64,000 bases of DNA. Origin: Candidatus Thorarchaeota archaeon (GTDB lineage Archaea; Asgardarchaeota; Thorarchaeia; Thorarchaeales; Thorarchaeaceae). The stretch covers positions 1 through 64,000 of the forward strand of contig SDNP01000013.1 in assembly GCA_004524445.1 (NCBI GenBank). The letters run 5' to 3'. The position numbers were made by a program, and so were the translations under genes. Positions 34,118 to 61,223 of the stretch are shown piece by piece. Within the stretch, counting starts at the first letter, position 1; the number at the start of each line of letters is the position of its first letter. The notes beneath the pieces were generated by a model. The model was not told the DNA's origin. It searched no databases and saw nothing but the letters and a program-made list of their open reading frames with translations.

Positions 34118-35212
34118 ATGATTAATCGTAAGAGAATTCCTAAACTACTCGCTGTGGCAATCACTCTAATGATATTCATATCCGGAGTCCAGTGTTCAGC
34201 AAAGGCTCAAGACACCGAGCTAGACCCCATTGTAGTGATGTACGAAGCCAGCCATGCTCCACAATTTTCTGCAGATAATGCTGAAGACGGGCTCAAATTA
34301 ATGTTGGATATGGTCAACGAGTCAACACGCTACCTTCTGCGGGTTAATCATGAACCCCTCAATGATACAATTCTTGAGGATGTTGATATTCTAATAATAG
34401 CGGAGCCCGATGAGAGTGCTGAGTTTGAACATGAAGAAATTCTTGCCATTGATGAGCTCTTAACTAATGGCAGTTCCCTTTTTATTTTAGGTGACCCCAG
34501 CATCGACCAAAACTCGGCATACTGGAGCAATCAGCAATTTAGAGATTTAGGTGAAAATGTTGCCATCAATACATTTCTAGATCAGATGAACATTACAACA
34601 GTAAGATTTGGTCTTAATGAATCAGCAACTGGTCGAATTTTTGGTGACACCATGTTTGATTACGAGCATTCGTTGAATTCATCGTATCCTTCAATTATTC
34701 AATTCGATTCCACTACGTGGGATACAAGCCACCCGATTTTCAAGGATATTAATACAGTAATATCCATGACGGCAACTCTCAAACCTATTGACCTGGTGAG
34801 TGGAATTGCCCATGGGTATGAGACCTCTTTTGCACAATACCGGCGTGGGCCAAACACATTCGGGAACCTTACGTTTCCCAATATGACTTTGGAAGAATTT
34901 CAAGAAGCTCCGAAATCATATTCCGCCATAAACGGGACATTCCCTCCATGGCTCTCTGCCTTTCGATATGGCAATAGCAGAATTGTTGTGGGAGGCTCCG
35001 CATTGATGTTTACGGGACGTAATCTCGACTTGCCGGAGAGTGAAGAAAAGTGGTTCTATCAGGGAGATAATTCTAGGTTATTCATGAACATTATGAGCTG
35101 GCTTTCATATGACTTTGTCAACCCTGAAAGTCCAATTCTTCCTATGTTGATTATCTCATCAGTAATCTTATTGATTGGGGTAGCATACTACCTCTTCAAG
35201 AAACTGAGATAG
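34118..35212 (+). CDS. Type I membrane protein with GldG/DUF4350/Wbp1(OST48)-like extracytoplasmic domain
   Basis: Signal peptide, YEASH, DILIIAEP...F...E..AI.E.L.NGSSLFILGD, DNSRLFMNIMSWL, C-terminal TM ending KKLR. Confidence 0.65.
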   Translation: MINRKRIPKLLAVAITLMIFISGVQCSAKAQDTELDPIVVMYEASHAPQFSADNAEDGLKLMLDMVNESTRYLLRVNHEPLNDTILEDVDILIIAEPDESAEFEHEEILAIDELLTNGSSLFILGDPSIDQNSAYWSNQQFRDLGENVAINTFLDQMNITTVRFGLNESATGRIFGDTMFDYEHSLNSSYPSIIQFDSTTWDTSHPIFKDINTVISMTATLKPIDLVSGIAHGYETSFAQYRRGPNTFGNLTFPNMTLEEFQEAPKSYSAINGTFPPWLSAFRYGNSRIVVGGSALMFTGRNLDLPESEEKWFYQGDNSRLFMNIMSWLSYDFVNPESPILPMLIISSVILLIGVAYYLFKKLR

Positions 35213-35216
35213 ATAC

Positions 35217-35837
35217 TCACCATTTGGGCAGTTTGAAATCCTGTTCTTGCAGGCTCTCTTGAATTGCTCGTTTCAGCTCTCCCACTCCTTCCTTTTTGCG
35301 AGCTGACATTGCTACAATATGTGGCATTTGCGTTGGAACTGCCTCATGCAACTTGTGGTACAAGAACGCAATTTCTTCATCTCGTCGTCTATGACTCACT
35401 TTGTCAATCTTGTTTGCGGCCACAATTACCTTCGGTGATATCTCCGAGAGAAAAGAATAGAATTCTATGTCTATCGGTATTTCTCCTCTCTCTTCCCAAC
35501 GCTCTACCAGTTCTCTGAAAATTGAAATATCTATAATCAATACGCACAGAGCAATTTGGTCGCTTCGCTTTTCAAGGTTTCTTACAATCCGGGTCTTGGT
35601 GTGATCAATGCGTCTCCTACTTTGGCCCGACATATGCCCAAAACCTGGAATATCGATAAAAAGCACATTACCCAAGTCTATGATTTGCTCGGTTCGAGTA
35701 CTACCAGGTTTTTTTCCGACTCGAATCCGAAGTCCTGTTAAAGCCCTAATTACGCTGCTTTTCCCAACGTTACTTCGGCCTGCAAAAATGACAAGCGGTT
35801 TTCCGGATTCAATCCCAGAAGGGTCGTGTACGCTCAT
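35217..35837 (-). CDS. engB: GTP-binding protein EngB/YsxC
   Basis: GRSNVGKSS, GKKPGST, DIPGFG, NKID. Confidence 0.9.
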   Translation of the reverse strand: MSVHDPSGIESGKPLVIFAGRSNVGKSSVIRALTGLRIRVGKKPGSTRTEQIIDLGNVLFIDIPGFGHMSGQSRRRIDHTKTRIVRNLEKRSDQIALCVLIIDISIFRELVERWEERGEIPIDIEFYSFLSEISPKVIVAANKIDKVSHRRRDEEIAFLYHKLHEAVPTQMPHIVAMSARKKEGVGELKRAIQESLQEQDFKLPKW

Positions 35838-38649
35838 ATTCTTGCTCCGCCTTTGCTATCGAATGCAACAGTGTAAGCCTATCGGTTTGCCCCGGTCTTA
35901 GAACTCTTGATGCAGTTGTCGGACCAATCCCTCTTCCTGCCAATGCCAATAACGCCTTTTTTCCATATTGTGCAACAAGACTCGCGGTAAGTGATGCATT
36001 TTCATATCTCTTTTTCTCCTCACCTGATAACATTTCTCCAGCCTTGACTTTTCGCAATATTGTAGGCAAATTTTTGACCCTCTCTCTGACGGCAGCAATC
36101 ATCCTTGAATTACAGATTGGACAGGTGATCTCATCATCAAGCGTAGATATAGTCCGTACAGAATTCCAGTCATTCTTCGCCATGCAGATCAGTCTAAATT
36201 TTCTAGACAATAATCGCTCTTCCAAGAAACGTAAGACCTCATCTTCATCACTTATCTCCCCCATAACCTCAAAGCGTGTCTTCTCCTCAATGATGAGTCG
36301 GGCAAGCAAGGAGGGTTGTTTCCGTTTAGAAATTACCGTTTGAATCTCTCCCGTGTCGATTTTTTCGAAAACCTCGAGCATACGATTCTCATCAAGCTTC
36401 TCTCTAAGTATTTCCTTCATGGCTTCATCGAAGACTGGTGACGACTCAAAGACATCGATTAGCCGTCTAGATGGTATTTCCTTAAATTTGGCAGTCCTTC
36501 GAATAATTCCCATTCTTCTTCCTACATGAATGAAACGTGACGCAAATGTTTGTGTCTGCCTTACTGCTAATCTCAAAATGGTGGAAATTTGGGCACCTTG
36601 ATAGCTACTAAAGACATCTAGTAAATACTGGGCATCAATTCCGCCGCTGGCGGTGAGAAGGATTCTATAGGGGTCAGTTTCCACAGCCACCTCCTTTCCC
36701 AACCTAGTTGTGAGTAATGCCGCTAGAACAACTCCAATTGTGTCATTTGTTTTCGTTCCGAAAGGGGCGTGAAATACAATCCCGTCCGGGATAGTTTCGA
36801 TTATGAGGTGAGTTTCTGTAGGTATCGAACCTAGTTGTTCCTTCGCAGTTGTGACACTCTCAACGAGATAATTTGATGACGTTTCATTCATCATATAATT
36901 TGTTTCCAACCAACTTGATGCTTCATATGATAAATCCCCAAGACGTTCCCAAACATCGGCCACTTCAGTTGCCACCTCAAATGGAACCGGTATCATTTCC
37001 CCTATCCATCTTGGTGCCTCAACCTGAGTGTCAGTCACAGGAGCACAAAGAACCTCTTCACGTTCTTCATCAATTGATACAACCCGCCAGGGCCTTCCTC
37101 TGATAACGAATATAAATCCGGTTTCTACACTCTCAGTGACAAAATCTTCATCAAGAACTCCTATTCCTGTTCTCGTGGCAATGTCTACAGCTCTGACTTG
37201 TTGCACATCGGGTATTGTACTCAGATGTTCATAGTAGTAGGGCAACGTACCACCATATCGCTTGATTAGGTCGTCTTCTATGAGAAGAAATCGACGTCTA
37301 ACCATGAAGTCCAACAATCTGTCGAGTTCTTTTTCATTAACCTCTCTGAAAGGATATGCGCCTTTTATAATCCTCAGCAATTCACTCTTGCGGATTTCTC
37401 CTGTATCCAGTAACACTCCGCTTACTTGCTGACAAAGGACATCCCAGGTCTTCTGGGGAATATCAGCGGGTTCTACCTTGTTGATTCGAGCTCGTTTCAG
37501 TATTACGGCAGACTCCGTGATATCATCCACATTCATTGTAGAAATGATTATACCTTTGGAAACTCTCCCGACCCGATGTCCCGATCTACCGATTCGTTGA
37601 ACCGCTCTAGATACTTCTCTGGGTGAAGAATACTGGATTACTAAATCCGCCAACCCAATATCTATTCCCAACTCAAGACTAGATGTCGCAATAATTGCCT
37701 TTGACACGCCTCTTTTCAGCCTATCTTCGGCACTCAATCTCACTTCTTTTGAGAGTGATCCATGATGCACATCAAACTCAAACGGTGGTGAAATCGTACG
37801 CATCTTTGCTCCCAAAACCTCTGCAAAGGAACGCGTGTTTGTAAAAACAATCGTGGTCTGGTGGCTTTCAATAAGATCCTTGATTCTTTCTAGCCTAGCG
37901 GCAGAATGTGGTGGATAGGAAATTTGCCTACCTAGTTCTATATGTTGGCTGTTAGGCTGAGGCATTTCCACCTTGAGATGTATTTGCCTCTCTTGATATC
38001 CCGCCCATAATGTATGGATTTTTTTCCCACTGCCTCTAAGAAGGAATGCTATTTCATTGGCATTTCCCACTGTAGCGGATAGTCCAACTCTTTGAATCTT
38101 ATTGCCAATCCAATGGACTAATCGTTCCAATGCAAGTGATAGTTGGGTTCCTCGCTTGCTTCCTGCCAACTCATGTATTTCATCAACAATTACTGCCATA
38201 ACTGAGCGAAGATGATATTTCATCCGTTTTCCAGGTAGAATTGCCTGAAGCGTTTCTGGTGTTGTGATGAGTAAATTTGGAGGCGTTATTGCCTGCTTGC
38301 GTCGGAAATACTGAGTAGTGTCTCCATGGCGTACGGCAACAGTGATTCCCAAGTGCTCACAGAGGTCTTCTATCCTGCGAAAGACATCCCGATTTAATGC
38401 GCGCAGCGGCGTAATATAGAGTATGTATATACCAAATAACTCATCATGTAACTTTCTTTCGTAAAGGTTACTCAGAAGTGGCAATATTGATGCCTCTGTC
38501 TTTCCACTTCCCGTGGGCGCAAGGAGCAGTGCAGAACCTCCACTACGAATCCTGGGAATCGCCTTCTCTTGAATCTCTGTTGGTTTAGTAATGCCTTCTC
38601 TAGTGAGATATTCAACTATGTCCGCATGAAGCGACTCGAATCCATTCAT
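35809..38649 (-). CDS. Lhr-family ATP-dependent helicase
   Basis: APTGSGKT, TPLRALNRD, DEIHE, HHGSLS, QRIGRSGH, C-terminal Zn finger/HhH. Confidence 0.92.
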   Translation of the reverse strand: MNGFESLHADIVEYLTREGITKPTEIQEKAIPRIRSGGSALLLAPTGSGKTEASILPLLSNLYERKLHDELFGIYILYITPLRALNRDVFRRIEDLCEHLGITVAVRHGDTTQYFRRKQAITPPNLLITTPETLQAILPGKRMKYHLRSVMAVIVDEIHELAGSKRGTQLSLALERLVHWIGNKIQRVGLSATVGNANEIAFLLRGSGKKIHTLWAGYQERQIHLKVEMPQPNSQHIELGRQISYPPHSAARLERIKDLIESHQTTIVFTNTRSFAEVLGAKMRTISPPFEFDVHHGSLSKEVRLSAEDRLKRGVSKAIIATSSLELGIDIGLADLVIQYSSPREVSRAVQRIGRSGHRVGRVSKGIIISTMNVDDITESAVILKRARINKVEPADIPQKTWDVLCQQVSGVLLDTGEIRKSELLRIIKGAYPFREVNEKELDRLLDFMVRRRFLLIEDDLIKRYGGTLPYYYEHLSTIPDVQQVRAVDIATRTGIGVLDEDFVTESVETGFIFVIRGRPWRVVSIDEEREEVLCAPVTDTQVEAPRWIGEMIPVPFEVATEVADVWERLGDLSYEASSWLETNYMMNETSSNYLVESVTTAKEQLGSIPTETHLIIETIPDGIVFHAPFGTKTNDTIGVVLAALLTTRLGKEVAVETDPYRILLTASGGIDAQYLLDVFSSYQGAQISTILRLAVRQTQTFASRFIHVGRRMGIIRRTAKFKEIPSRRLIDVFESSPVFDEAMKEILREKLDENRMLEVFEKIDTGEIQTVISKRKQPSLLARLIIEEKTRFEVMGEISDEDEVLRFLEERLLSRKFRLICMAKNDWNSVRTISTLDDEITCPICNSRMIAAVRERVKNLPTILRKVKAGEMLSGEEKKRYENASLTASLVAQYGKKALLALAGRGIGPTTASRVLRPGQTDRLTLLHSIAKAEQEYERTRPFWD

Positions 38650-38903
38650 TTTTTCTTCTGTCCAGCGACGAGATGTCTTCTTTCATTGAGCAAAATATTG
38701 ATATCAGTTCGGATGGTAGCATCAGCATCTTTTGAAATTTTACTCAACTCACTACGGATTCGTCAATGGGCCGTCAATCGATTTTCAGCTTATTTACTAT
38801 GATTTTTACTTGATGAAGATTAGAAATATGAGATACTATGTTCTCGTAGGCTAATTGGAGTAATTCATTAGTTTTGATGGGTTCTCCATCCTTTTCAACT
38901 ACT

Positions 38904-39023
38904 CTATTCTTCCCCGCGTTCTTCTCCATATACAGAATATGCAAGGATTATGACCAAGGCTATGATGCCCAGTGCGTTCAATAGGATAAAGAGCACCGAT
39001 TCGATGAAGGTTGTTGATTGCAT
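38904..39023 (-). CDS. 39-aa single-TM micro-protein, OST4-like (MQSTTFIESVLFILLNALGIIALVIILAYSVYGEERGEE)
   Basis: Manual translation; ATTATAAG TATA about 30 nt upstream; E..L.I..N.LG.........Y pattern. Confidence 0.6.
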   Translation of the reverse strand: MQSTTFIESVLFILLNALGIIALVIILAYSVYGEERGEE

Positions 39024-39090
39024 GGGAATCGCTTCTGCACATTTGGGCTGGTCTTATAATCATTGCTGAAGAGATGGACTTGTACTAGTC

Positions 39091-39345
39091 CTATGCAGTG
39101 CCCGCTTGCCGGGCCTCATAAAATCTATCAATAAATGAACCGTATATATCAACAGGTTCAGTCAGCTCGTTGACTTCGTCGATTGTCATCTCTAGTCCGC
39201 AAGATCCGCACTTGACAGTTGCCATCACTTCTTTACGATACAAGTCAATTTTGATGGCAGTATTTCCGCATGAAGGACAAGGATAAACATCAGGAATTCT
39301 CTTCTGCGGCCTTCTTCTGGATTTTTGTCTTCGTCTTCTTCCCAC
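39091..39345 (-). CDS. elf1: Transcription elongation factor Elf1
   Basis: MGRRRR, CPSC...CGSC, EPVDIYGSFID. Confidence 0.9.
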   Translation of the reverse strand: MGRRRRQKSRRRPQKRIPDVYPCPSCGNTAIKIDLYRKEVMATVKCGSCGLEMTIDEVNELTEPVDIYGSFIDRFYEARQAGTA

Positions 39346-39499
39346 TGTTTGTCACCAAACTTGCCTATTTCACACTTAGAGCTCAAGTCTAGGTAGAAAC
39401 AGAGCAGTTGGACCCTCGAGGGTGTTGATTTAAAGATTATGATACCTATTTAGCTCAAAGAGCAAAGCTTTCATATTAGAGTCCTATGCCGATTGCTTA

Positions 39500-39733
39500 A
39501 TGTCAGATTTATCGAAGAATGCCAAATGCGTCTTGATGATCTTAGAAAGAGAAGGATCACTGACCACATCAGAGATCCTAGAAGTCGCGAAACAAGAACC
39601 TTACTCACAGTACTGTTCAGACTGTGCAGGTGGAGACTCTTTTGTGGCGGCCGCTAATCATTTAGTGAACGAAGGCTTAATCGAGAGGAAGTTTGGCAAA
39701 GGCGGCTACCGCTGGGAACTTGTTAAGGAATGA
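39500..39733 (+). CDS. Small winged-helix-like protein with CxxC
   Basis: LTTSEIL...CSDC...LVNEGLIERKFGKGGYRW; overlaps the desulfurase start. Confidence 0.6.
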   Translation: MSDLSKNAKCVLMILEREGSLTTSEILEVAKQEPYSQYCSDCAGGDSFVAAANHLVNEGLIERKFGKGGYRWELVKE

Positions 39734-54504: not shown

Positions 54505-54936
54505 ATGAAGCTATGGTGGCCAAGAAGAATCATAAGACCTCGAGTCAGACTCAAGAGACCGAGATTTACCACTCCAACTCGACCTCCAGATGTGGTTCTA
54601 TTTGGAGTCCTGTTTATCGTCGTACTATTCATCCTTGGCGGTAATATCTATACCTTAGTTAGGTCCCCGCCAGCTATTGCTGGTGGTTCGGGTGGTTCTC
54701 CAATCCTGATTTCTCCTGGCATCGATTCACAATTAGGTTTGGAAGGTATTGTTGCCTCCGTCGTCATTCTAATGGGAACGATAGGATTGGGACTGATCTA
54801 CTACGCTTCAAAATATGTATTTCAACCAGGTTATGCCAACCGTCTTCTCTTGCTTGGCATGTTACTCAGTGGACTTTCTTTCCTCATATTTGGCTATCTC
54901 TTTGGGTACAAATTGGGTGCCTTTTCGCAAGGCTAA
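54505..54936 (+). CDS. OSTC/DC2 (OST3/OST6 TM-domain) homolog
   Basis: FILGGNIYTLVRSPP, Q.GLEGIVAS, GTIGLG, NRLLLLG, C-terminal YKLG. Confidence 0.8.
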   Translation: MKLWWPRRIIRPRVRLKRPRFTTPTRPPDVVLFGVLFIVVLFILGGNIYTLVRSPPAIAGGSGGSPILISPGIDSQLGLEGIVASVVILMGTIGLGLIYYASKYVFQPGYANRLLLLGMLLSGLSFLIFGYLFGYKLGAFSQG

Positions 54937-58237: not shown

Positions 58238-58463
58238 AATAATACATCTGATCAATGCTTGGGACAATCGTCTGTAAAGAATACCACGGTTGTCCGAAGC
58301 TAACCTATTTTTTCTGGTCCGACCTAAAACAACCAAATGCTATTTGGCAGTTCATTTCGTCCCTCTTTTCTGGTTGGTACAGAAATGAATCTATCCGAAA
58401 CCCTTTTAGCGAATACGAGATTGCTCCGCTTAGCTTCGAGTCGGAATGGAGAGAGCACACCGA

Positions 58464-61223
58464 ATGTCCAAATTCAATAGATTCAAACGGTCCGCGGGTC
58501 GTTTCCTGAAAAGGGTCTTCCGAAGGCCAAAGGCAGAAATTAGTCGTGGGTCCGTAATGATAATGGTGGCATTAGCAATCATTTTCATATCTGCACTGGC
58601 TCTAAGGCTGGAACCATTAATCAATGCTCAGCCTGTTGTAAGAGCTTTTGACCCCTGGTTCCAGCTGCGAGTGACAGAATATGTGGCGGAAAATGGGTAT
58701 GCTGCATATTTCTCTTGGTATGATTATACAACATGGGTGCCTTTTGGACGTGATATGACACAAACTAGCTATGTCGGTGTGCCATTTACCACTGCTTTCT
58801 TCTATTGGGTCGTAAATCTATTCGGAATCGAAGTATCCGTAACCTATGTTGCAATAGTTCTCCCTGCATTCATGGGCGCACTGACCACTATTGTTGCATT
58901 CTTCTTCGGACGAGAACTATACAACAATACTGTTGGATTGTTGAATGCCCTATTCATGGCTTTCATGCCAGCATTTATCCAGAGAACAATAGTTGGATTC
59001 TTTGACAATGAGAGCATAGGAATCTTTGCGATTGTACTTACCATGTACCTATTCATTCGTAGTATTCGACGTGGTTCAAGCATTTCGGGAGTCGCTGCAG
59101 GTTTGTCCCTAGGGTATCTACTTGCGTCATGGGGTGCTGCTGATTTCATGTTGGGCCTTTTTGCTCTTTATGGCCTTATTATGCTCATGATAGGGCGATA
59201 CAGCAAACGATTGCTGAGCTCTTATCTATTGACATTGGCTCTAGGTATGTTCATTGGATGTCTTGTGCCGCGAAATGGTTTCGAGAGCCTTACGTCGTTT
59301 ACATACCTTGCCCCGATGGGTGTAGGAATTCTTCTTGCGGGGTATGAAGTCTGGCTGAGAATAGGTTCACTTAGGGACGCCACTGCGACAAGACTTGCAC
59401 CTCACTTGAAGTCAATTCTGGTTGGAATTATCGCCCCAGTCGCAGGAATGATCGCTTATGTGATTTACTCGAGTGGATTAGACCTCGCGATTGTTACCAC
59501 AGCATCGAATCCCTTTACAGTTATTGGAAATAAATTCCTTAGTGTAATTAATCCATTTTACCGTCTTGATCAACGGATATTTGCATCTGTGGCTGAGCAC
59601 TTACCAAGCCCATGGGGAAGTTTCTATCAGACATTGTTGATACTAATCTTTTTCCTGCCTCTAGGAATGTACTTCTTATTCCGAAGAGGTCGAGATGAGG
59701 ACTATTTGATTCTCCTCTTTGGCATCACAGCTGTATACTTTGCAGGAAGCATGATTCGACTTAGTTTGATTCTTGCGCCTGCAGCTGCAATTCTTTCAGG
59801 TATAGCAGTTAACGGAATATTGAGCCCATTCGCCAAGGTTGTAACTCAGGACTCGGTCTTTGAGCGAAGAAGATTCAGAATGAGTTCATCTCTGACATCC
59901 GAGCATGCCATTGCCGCATTCGGATTTGTTGGTCTGCTTCTATCTGTAAATCTGATTCTTGGCGTTTCTTATGTGACGAACTCGGTGAGCAATCCCGAAT
60001 TTGCGCCGTCTCAGATCACATCCGACCGCCAGTTTGCTGATTGGCAGACGTCGATGAACTATATCAGGAACGTTCTACCAGATGATGCAGTTATTGCTAG
60101 TTGGTGGGATTACGGCTACTGGATAAATGGGGCTGGTGACGGACAAACGATTGTTGACAATGCCACTTGGAATCGTACGCAAATTGCCTTAATGGGTTAC
60201 GCACTGATGGCGCTCAATTTAACAGAGTCACTAAAGACGTTCAAGCTCTGGAATGCCTCACATGTATTGGTCTATTGGGGTCATACCAGTTCCGGTGTTG
60301 GCGGTGATGAAGGTAAATGGCCCTGGATGGTAAGAATTGCGGAGGACCGCTTTGGCAGCTCAGTCATCGATGATGCAACTTATCTTGGTGACAATCCTGC
60401 TACCGACCAGGAGGAGTCAGAATACACCCAGGACGCATTCTTCCAGTCCACTATATACAAGCTTATGATGTACAACGAGCCAACATCATTAGAATCCGGG
60501 CAACAGAGGGGACTAACTAATGAGCGCTTGGGCTGGGATAGGCAGTACATCGAAAATCCAGATAAGCGCTGGCTTAATAATATTCCACAGACCCTTCACG
60601 GTGCCTTCAAAGAAGCCTTCATCAGCTATGCATATGGCTTTGTCAAGATTTACGAGATTGACTATACAATGCTTGAGCAGTACAACAACCGTACCAGTTC
60701 AGACTGGCGGCTGAGACAAGACTCACTATCTCAAGTATCAATTGATGGCAGCCTTTCCCCGCAAGAGGAGGACTTTCAGAGTTTCAATACGGTATTTGGT
60801 GGTGGCTACGACGCTACTGTCTACACACGGGCGAACTCAACCCATGTCTATTATGGGATACAGATGGATAACTACACTCTTGGAGAAGACGCCTTCGGAC
60901 TGCAGATATCTCCAATCGATACTACTTCAGTATCAGACATTCGAGTTGTTAACTACCAAGGGCAGGAGTATTTCGATGGACATATCGACTATTATGGCGA
61001 CTGGGTGGCTGATGCCCAAAGTGCAAACGAATCTGAGGCGGCAACTGGTGAAAATGTGATAGAGTTCCTGCTACCGTTGGAATCCGATGATCCAGATGAT
61101 ATACATCTTGCCCCTGGAAATAAGTACCAAATACGCTTCCTATTCTGGAACAATATGCAAACTGGTGAACCAACACTCAATAGTGACTGGACGGTCTTCT
61201 GGGTTCCTGTAGAGCTACATTAG
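58464..61223 (+). CDS. aglB: Oligosaccharyltransferase AglB/STT3 with C-terminal DOMON/CBM9-like extension
   Basis: FDPWF, FFDNE, SVAEH, WWDYG, DNATWNRT, DEGKWPWMVRI, VKIYE. Confidence 0.95.
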   Translation: MSKFNRFKRSAGRFLKRVFRRPKAEISRGSVMIMVALAIIFISALALRLEPLINAQPVVRAFDPWFQLRVTEYVAENGYAAYFSWYDYTTWVPFGRDMTQTSYVGVPFTTAFFYWVVNLFGIEVSVTYVAIVLPAFMGALTTIVAFFFGRELYNNTVGLLNALFMAFMPAFIQRTIVGFFDNESIGIFAIVLTMYLFIRSIRRGSSISGVAAGLSLGYLLASWGAADFMLGLFALYGLIMLMIGRYSKRLLSSYLLTLALGMFIGCLVPRNGFESLTSFTYLAPMGVGILLAGYEVWLRIGSLRDATATRLAPHLKSILVGIIAPVAGMIAYVIYSSGLDLAIVTTASNPFTVIGNKFLSVINPFYRLDQRIFASVAEHLPSPWGSFYQTLLILIFFLPLGMYFLFRRGRDEDYLILLFGITAVYFAGSMIRLSLILAPAAAILSGIAVNGILSPFAKVVTQDSVFERRRFRMSSSLTSEHAIAAFGFVGLLLSVNLILGVSYVTNSVSNPEFAPSQITSDRQFADWQTSMNYIRNVLPDDAVIASWWDYGYWINGAGDGQTIVDNATWNRTQIALMGYALMALNLTESLKTFKLWNASHVLVYWGHTSSGVGGDEGKWPWMVRIAEDRFGSSVIDDATYLGDNPATDQEESEYTQDAFFQSTIYKLMMYNEPTSLESGQQRGLTNERLGWDRQYIENPDKRWLNNIPQTLHGAFKEAFISYAYGFVKIYEIDYTMLEQYNNRTSSDWRLRQDSLSQVSIDGSLSPQEEDFQSFNTVFGGGYDATVYTRANSTHVYYGIQMDNYTLGEDAFGLQISPIDTTSVSDIRVVNYQGQEYFDGHIDYYGDWVADAQSANESEAATGENVIEFLLPLESDDPDDIHLAPGNKYQIRFLFWNNMQTGEPTLNSDWTVFWVPVELH

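Follow-up and report, generated by a model that had tools for sequence, protein, structure and literature searches.

The DNA analysed here, referred to as the window, is a 64,000-nt stretch of contig SDNP01000013.1 from Candidatus Thorarchaeota archaeon, and it carries, between elf1 and the decayed second cistron that precedes an Lhr-type helicase gene, a very short gene whose product we call the micro-protein (Table 1). The 39-aa product, which is very hydrophobic, starts MQSTTFIES, runs into a hydrophobic stretch and ends in LAYSVYGEERGEE; residues 10-28 form its best 19-residue segment (mean Kyte-Doolittle 3.05), and a single-pass, one-helix membrane protein is predicted. In the micro-protein family both flanks of the helix are acidic and K/R residues are scattered, and the topology is not clear from charge. 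A sequence-only reading of the same DNA had pointed to this open reading frame as an uncalled gene resembling eukaryotic OST4. The frame itself was confirmed, on the minus strand and with its frame conserved, and the remark that such an ORF is small enough to escape gene callers was also correct, because the exact sequence is absent from a 15-billion-protein collection and the window's micro-protein is thus uncalled in public gene calls. Some orthologues are called in public databases, as 'hypothetical protein', and the family has neither a name nor a Pfam domain there. Pfam, PDB-sequence and language-model searches with the window micro-protein returned only noise, and a match to MrpC TM3 (E 0.57) was rejected as chance. 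An Rfam search of positions 38400-39600 found no RNA family. Fused longer forms of the micro-protein were searched for and none was found, hence no fusion names a partner.

Table 1. Features at the micro-protein locus and OST-related genes elsewhere in the window.
Feature	Position	Strand	Details
GldG-type ABC_transp_aux protein	34118-35212	+	364 aa; PF09822, E 1.4e-9
Small GTPase, fourth cassette gene	35217..35837	-	206 aa; MMR_HSR1; overlaps lhr end
Lhr-type helicase (lhr), third cassette gene	35809..38649	-	946 aa; DEAD, Helicase_C, WH_Lhr, DEAD_assoc
ORF2, decayed second cistron	38646..38929	-	Profile match 38753-38875 with internal TGA
Micro-protein gene	38904..39023	-	39 codons + TAG stop; short N-terminal segment, one TM helix at about residues 10-32, acidic tail
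Micro-protein promoter	39053..39068	-	BRE-like CAGCAATG + TATA box ATTATAAG
elf1 (Zn-ribbon Elf1), upstream neighbour	39091..39345	-	PF05129, E 1e-18
OST3/OST6-family protein	54505..54936	+	143 aa; PF04756, E 4.5e-9; 15.5 kb from micro-protein gene
STT3/AglB	58446..61223	+	925 aa; PF02516, E 2.7e-46; 19.4 kb from micro-protein gene

The gene is genuine and strongly conserved. A first search, which covered 40 relatives, showed an open frame in every one of the 24 genomes that belong to the same GTDB family, and a profile search with A1, the alignment of 20 Thor orthologues, found it open and single-copy in 84 of 85 Thorarchaeaceae genomes (E 1e-10 to 1e-20); a lack of conservation, which the sequence-only reading had named as a finding that would speak against it, was therefore not what we saw. 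Pairwise differences among the 20 orthologues amount to 0.40/0.22/0.66 per codon position, the other five frames of the locus accumulate 20-66 stops over the same set, and the comparison with the congener yields 4 synonymous and 2 conservative changes, a substitution pattern that is that of a coding gene. Within A1 the residues M1, Q2, L23, Y29 and G33 are invariant and G19, A22 and E38 nearly so, the Gly being 95% conserved, while the Asn site varies among N/D/V/S/T/A/E/L and the acidic residue is likewise variable. A scan of 1.84 billion representative proteins returned only 19 relatives of the micro-protein, nearly all of 29-54 aa.

The gene is preceded by a promoter of its own, as the sequence-only reading had noticed when it placed a TATA box about 30 nt upstream. 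The box ATTATAAG lies at 39060-39053 with CAGCAATG just before it, ends 29 nt ahead of the ATG and has its core centre about 34 nt ahead of it. It is present in 20 of 20 orthologous loci (TTATAAG in 19, TTTTAAG in one) at a fixed spacing of 29 nt, which argues for a very short or absent leader. Conservation across Thor genera also extends to the bases around the start, GATTCC.ATGCA(A/G) (8 nt before each ATG in L003-L022), which may represent an initiator or a leaderless start context. The elf1 gene forms a separate unit, its stop lying 67 nt before the micro-protein ATG with the micro-protein promoter in between.

Downstream, lhr begins 254 nt after the micro-protein ORF, and in most Thor loci this spacer holds a conserved ORF of 74-81 aa, ORF2, which is preceded by a GGGAGG box, starts 20-30 nt past the end of the micro-protein gene and extends up to or across the lhr ATG. 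Because the spacer is occupied in this way, we infer that the micro-protein gene is the first cistron of a conserved operon predicted to comprise the micro-protein gene, ORF2, usually lhr, and the GTPase gene. The gene order RPA, cysteine desulfurase, small wHTH, elf1, micro-protein, lhr is identical in 25 named Thor loci, the exceptions being cut contigs and one MAG (L073) without lhr. This Thor MAG (L073:6001-8102) and locus L104 of genome G025, from the sister family f2, have no lhr in the cassette; there the order is micro-protein, ORF2, GTPase, with a GldG-like gene in convergent orientation next, and lhr is thus common in the cassette but not obligatory.

ORF2 carries the motif AFENVAGH..NL ... 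VTLRTD.RIL.NE.RH (e.g., L051:6143-6376 and L061:6150-6377 in Thorarchaeaceae) and is predicted confidently to fold as a four-helix protein (pLDDT 94.5). Its only match is Pyrococcus furiosus PF2048.1 (PDB 6E4J/6NS8; E 5e-12, TM-score 0.78-0.84), a structural-genomics target without known function. The C-terminal helix of ORF2 is basic and the tail of the micro-protein acidic. In the window, ORF2 has no ATG at the usual place and contains a frameshift and a premature TGA (38774-38776) at which the N-terminal fragment ends; the C-terminal fragment (38747-38646) is read in a different frame, up to a stop that overlaps the lhr ATG. Both MAGs of the window's genus have a broken ORF2, with different indels, beside an intact micro-protein gene. 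By its sequence, ORF2 in this genus is a decaying pseudogene, so its product cannot be an essential partner of the micro-protein here; the four-helix protein is likely a facultative partner that is dispensable in this genus. P0102, a protein of 182 aa from a Jordarchaeaceae MAG that is labelled 'helicase-related protein, partial', combines an ORF2 profile match (E 6e-8) with Helicase_C; it represents a fusion of ORF2 with a helicase or else two genes merged in calling.

Weak profile matches in other Asgard families proved on inspection to be short ORFs that likewise encode a TM helix, (A/V/I)Y and an acidic tail. Members of the family, defined by alignments A1, A6 and A7, have in common a single TM helix with an invariant Tyr close to where it ends, an acidic tail and, in most cases, a small residue ten positions ahead of this Tyr; the non-Thor members measure 31-50 aa, and in several that were read closely the ORF is preceded by an SD-like GGAG box. 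Comparison of A6, the alignment of 25 non-Thor members, with the Thor alignment A1 by hhalign gave a probability of 96.9% (E 2e-10). A micro-protein gene stands directly upstream of an ORF2 homologue in eight GTDB families (f1, f2, f7, f8, f13, f15, f21 and f33), often overlapping it or at most 30 nt away, while the flanking genes change between families. The next gene after ORF2 is lhr in f1, f8, f15 and f33; in f32 the micro-protein gene is followed by lhr and ORF2 was not detected, nor was ORF2 found near the micro-protein gene in f18, f3, f9 and one f13 genome. Among 121 sampled Asgard genomes, ORF2 occurs in 37 and the micro-protein profile matches in 39, a profile that misses members revealed by position. 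The window protein shares the TM helix, the Tyr, the acidic tail and the position ahead of a PF2048.1-like gene or lhr, and these features make it the Thorarchaeaceae representative of a family that occurs in many Asgard lineages. Two kinds of variant were seen: the f9 members (L120:3998-4147 and L128:3998-4150, both on the minus strand) have 50 aa with an extra N-terminal hydrophobic segment, end IILAY/IILVY ... (R/K)(E/Q)E and have no ORF2 or lhr nearby, and the f18 members (L098-L101, L121) start with TTG after a GGAG box, bear a much longer acidic tail, NEEEEDLEEELEI, and have no ORF2 or lhr within 4 kb.

The proposed kinship with OST4 was based on an ungapped alignment to a human OST4 stretch, and this stretch proved exact (PDB 2LAT_A, residues 2-27). 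Among the residues said to be in register, the Tyr is invariant and the Gly 95% conserved in Thor, whereas the Asn and the acidic residue vary; the size and architecture are indeed similar, but the tail is acidic where that of OST4 is basic, and the His after the Tyr is missing from the Thor proteins, as had been stated. Pfam Ost4 (PF10215, curated cut-off 25 bits) found no match at E<=10 in the window protein or the 20 Thor orthologues. The six-frame scan with this model that had been suggested, run on the window's genome, matched only two other places, at noise level, and nothing at the micro-protein ORF, and the same scan of 400 Asgard genomes gave nothing over the 25-bit cut-off; when its best matches were read, they proved to be helices at the C-terminal end of long proteins or junk from the wrong frame of AT-rich DNA, and not stand-alone Ost4 genes. 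PDB profile searches never returned OST4, and a language-model search with the Thor protein found no Ost4 cluster. The sequence-only reading had also held that a score no better than that of random TM helices would tell against it, and this is what the Thor profile gave: it scored 2.5 and 0.8 bits on human and yeast OST4, respectively, values that 20% and 47% of 1518 TM windows of the same length, taken from the window's genome, equal or exceed.

The wider family behaves differently from the Thor proteins, in that Ost4 is the commonest weak Pfam match among its non-Thor members (4 of 25; best E 0.0058, 16.9 bits against the cut-off of 25). L118, a member from GTDB family f32, has Ost4 as each of its three closest named language-model clusters (0.88, 0.87 and 0.83; 210, 205 and 184 shared features, the best being 210 of 256). 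The comparison of orthologue profiles with OST4 that had been proposed came out mixed: the hhalign probability was only 4.7-5.9%, but the score of A6 against human plus yeast OST4 (14.8) lies in the 95th-99th percentile of 300 TM windows, and the register, Tyr to Tyr25 and Gly to Gly15, is the one that had been proposed. The A6 HMM gave 8.3 bits on yeast Ost4, within the top 0.7% of TM windows, and a median value on human OST4, while six of the 25 members fall in the top 5% of TM windows against an OST4 HMM. Many non-Thor members start MI.(D/E) and share with OST4 the placing of the Tyr (25-26) and the Gly (15-16). These matches are not independent evidence, because the members are related to one another; moreover, human and yeast OST4 compared alone reach only E 0.07, so sequence by itself cannot settle the affiliation of a 35-residue helix. 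The OST4 idea is not refuted, since the Ost4-ward signal of the wider family is weak but consistent. For the window protein, the real gene of an Asgard archaeon with its own promoter, the size and the Gly-x9-Tyr spacing stood, and the identity with OST4 found no Ost4 signal in Thor behind it.

The genes for an OST3/6-family protein and STT3 stand in the same window but are parted from each other and from the micro-protein gene by topoisomerase, folate enzyme and glycine cleavage genes. In other genomes, STT3 lies 59-375 kb from the micro-protein gene or on other contigs. A conserved link of the micro-protein gene to STT3, OST3/6 or a GldG/Wbp1-like gene was sought, and the 15-20 kb arrangement was found only in the Thor order. 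The GldG-like gene is convergent and two genes beyond the cassette in f1 and f2 and 8 kb off in f15, being near in these three families only; in genome G102 (f18), a GldG-like protein of 430 aa has a weak OST48_N match (23 bits).

Asgard Ost4 has a precedent in print. According to Eme et al. 2023 (Nature 618:992, PMC10307638), homologues of Ost4 and Ost5 occur 'in most Asgard archaeal classes' and were found by profile-profile methods without fixed cut-offs; the supplementary discussion of that paper names only Ost5 and Wbp1. The sequence-only reading, which knew of no Asgard OST4, was mistaken in its claim of novelty, and a claim to the first Asgard OST4 fails because that paper already reports one. 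What is new and unexplained is the conserved pairing of the micro-protein with a PF2048.1-like protein and Lhr.

Taken jointly, these observations are best explained by a real, conserved micro-protein with its own promoter, encoded by the first cistron and possibly serving as an accessory 'glue' helix on a larger membrane partner, an account drawn from sequence patterns whose chances we judge to be evenly balanced. Under this glue-helix account, the gene would be transcribed from its BRE/TATA promoter with almost no leader, the TM helix would dock on a larger membrane partner through the face formed by Gly19, Ala22-Leu23, Tyr29 and Gly33, and the acidic tail would sit at the membrane surface. 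The Stt3-Ost3/6 core would be the only specific partner candidate with any sequence support, all of it sub-threshold. Several observations count against the glue-helix account: the conserved G19/A22-L23/Y29/G33 face is generic for helix packing, charge gives no clear topology, the search for fused forms named no partner, and one would not expect a membrane-enzyme subunit to be paired so closely, and with translational coupling, with a DNA helicase and a four-helix protein that is soluble. A more specific reading, possible although on balance doubtful, makes the micro-protein a true orthologue of eukaryotic OST4 whose helix would lie between Stt3/AglB and an Ost3/6-like subunit and stabilise an Asgard OST complex; it would then probably belong to the same family as the Asgard Ost4 of Eme et al. 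2023, whose report (PMC10307638) itself speaks for such an orthologue. Orthology is favoured by the same size, architecture and Gly-x9-Tyr spacing, the MI.(D/E) start of many non-Thor members, the Pfam Ost4 matches in 4/25 of them, the all-Ost4 clusters of L118, the percentiles of A6 (95th-99th in hhalign, top 0.7% on yeast Ost4) and of six of the 25 members (top 5%), and the presence of STT3 and an OST3/6-family gene in the same 64 kb. Against it, no curated or statistical threshold is reached (25 bits; hhalign 4.7-5.9%), the Thor members lack any Ost4 signal, the score of human OST4 equals the median for random helices, PDB profile searches miss OST4, and public databases assign no Pfam domain. 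In addition, where OST4 has His26 and a basic tail there is an acidic tail, a cytosolic four-helix protein and a helicase take the place of OST genes among the conserved neighbours, and STT3 is 19 kb off here and 59-375 kb off or on other contigs elsewhere.

The pairing with ORF2 admits a further explanation, in which the main role of the micro-protein would be to tether the ORF2 protein, and through it Lhr, to the membrane, the acidic tail binding the basic last helix of ORF2. That the pair is kept, often overlapping, in eight families while flanking genes change, that the two charges are complementary in sign, and that ORF2 folds confidently (pLDDT 94.5) and matches PF2048.1 only are all consistent with tethering, but ORF2 has decayed in the window's genus where the micro-protein gene is intact, several families have the micro-protein gene without a detectable ORF2, and PF2048.1 has no known function, and we consider such a main role quite unlikely. 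A broader version, in which the micro-protein and the PF2048.1-like protein form a membrane-anchored module coupling an Lhr-type helicase (and the GTPase) to the membrane in many Asgard lineages, is unlikely as well; the 'Asgard Ost4' of the literature would then be a chance TM-helix likeness to the micro-protein family. A very short first cistron ahead of a long operon might also be read as a regulatory upstream ORF that serves the lhr operon as a leader peptide, or as a chance ORF; in neither case would it function as a protein. This is highly improbable, since the amino-acid sequence is kept between families although their Lhr proteins are only about 40% identical, the substitution pattern is of the coding type, and the micro-protein gene persists even where lhr has diverged or lies at another place.

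Should the family be a genuine counterpart of Ost4, the Stt3-Ost4-Ost3 subcomplex would predate eukaryotes, which fits the reported Asgard OST repertoire and has already been claimed in print. Our analysis adds a precise, testable family, described by its alignments, its invariant Tyr, its promoter and its operon, together with evidence for a divergent, mostly unannotated form in Thorarchaeaceae. Unexpectedly, the micro-protein gene is tied by position to those for a PF2048.1-like protein and an Lhr helicase and not to OST genes, a linkage that either questions the Ost4 reading or hints at a membrane-linked helicase module.

Among known systems, OST4, sarcolipin and KdpF are accessory helices in which a lone TM helix docks on a polytopic partner, and the way of working suggested by the glue-helix account could be likened to theirs, a likeness that says nothing on family membership. 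With sarcolipin/phospholamban/DWORF and KdpF, the micro-protein would share only this proposed way of working and has no sequence relation; isolated Pfam matches to Phospholamban (E 0.37), DWORF (E 0.52) and Sarcolamban (E 0.41) are at noise level. PF2048.1 of P. furiosus is the closest known relative of ORF2, not of the micro-protein. The Asgard Ost4 of Eme et al. 2023 and the micro-protein family are both widespread in Asgard archaea and the latter leans towards Ost4, the two being likened by description only. Eukaryotic OST4 (human PDB 2LAT; yeast Ost4 PDB 1RKL/6EZN; PF10215) is alike in its 34-39 aa and one TM helix, its G15-Y25 spacing equals the Gly-x9-Tyr of the micro-protein, and both have a short charged tail. 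Human and yeast OST4 both start MI(S/T)D.QL; the Thor proteins start MQ... instead, several other Asgard members have an MI.(D/E)-like start, and the Thor proteins differ further in four extra N-terminal residues, the lack of the OST4 His26, an acidic instead of a basic tail, and a gene that sits in a helicase cassette and not beside OST genes. In OST4 itself the Tyr lies near the cytosolic end of the helix, the N-terminus is outside, and the C-terminus is cytosolic with a basic tail. The weak Pfam, hhalign and language-model signals of the wider family nonetheless point to OST4 and to no other family.
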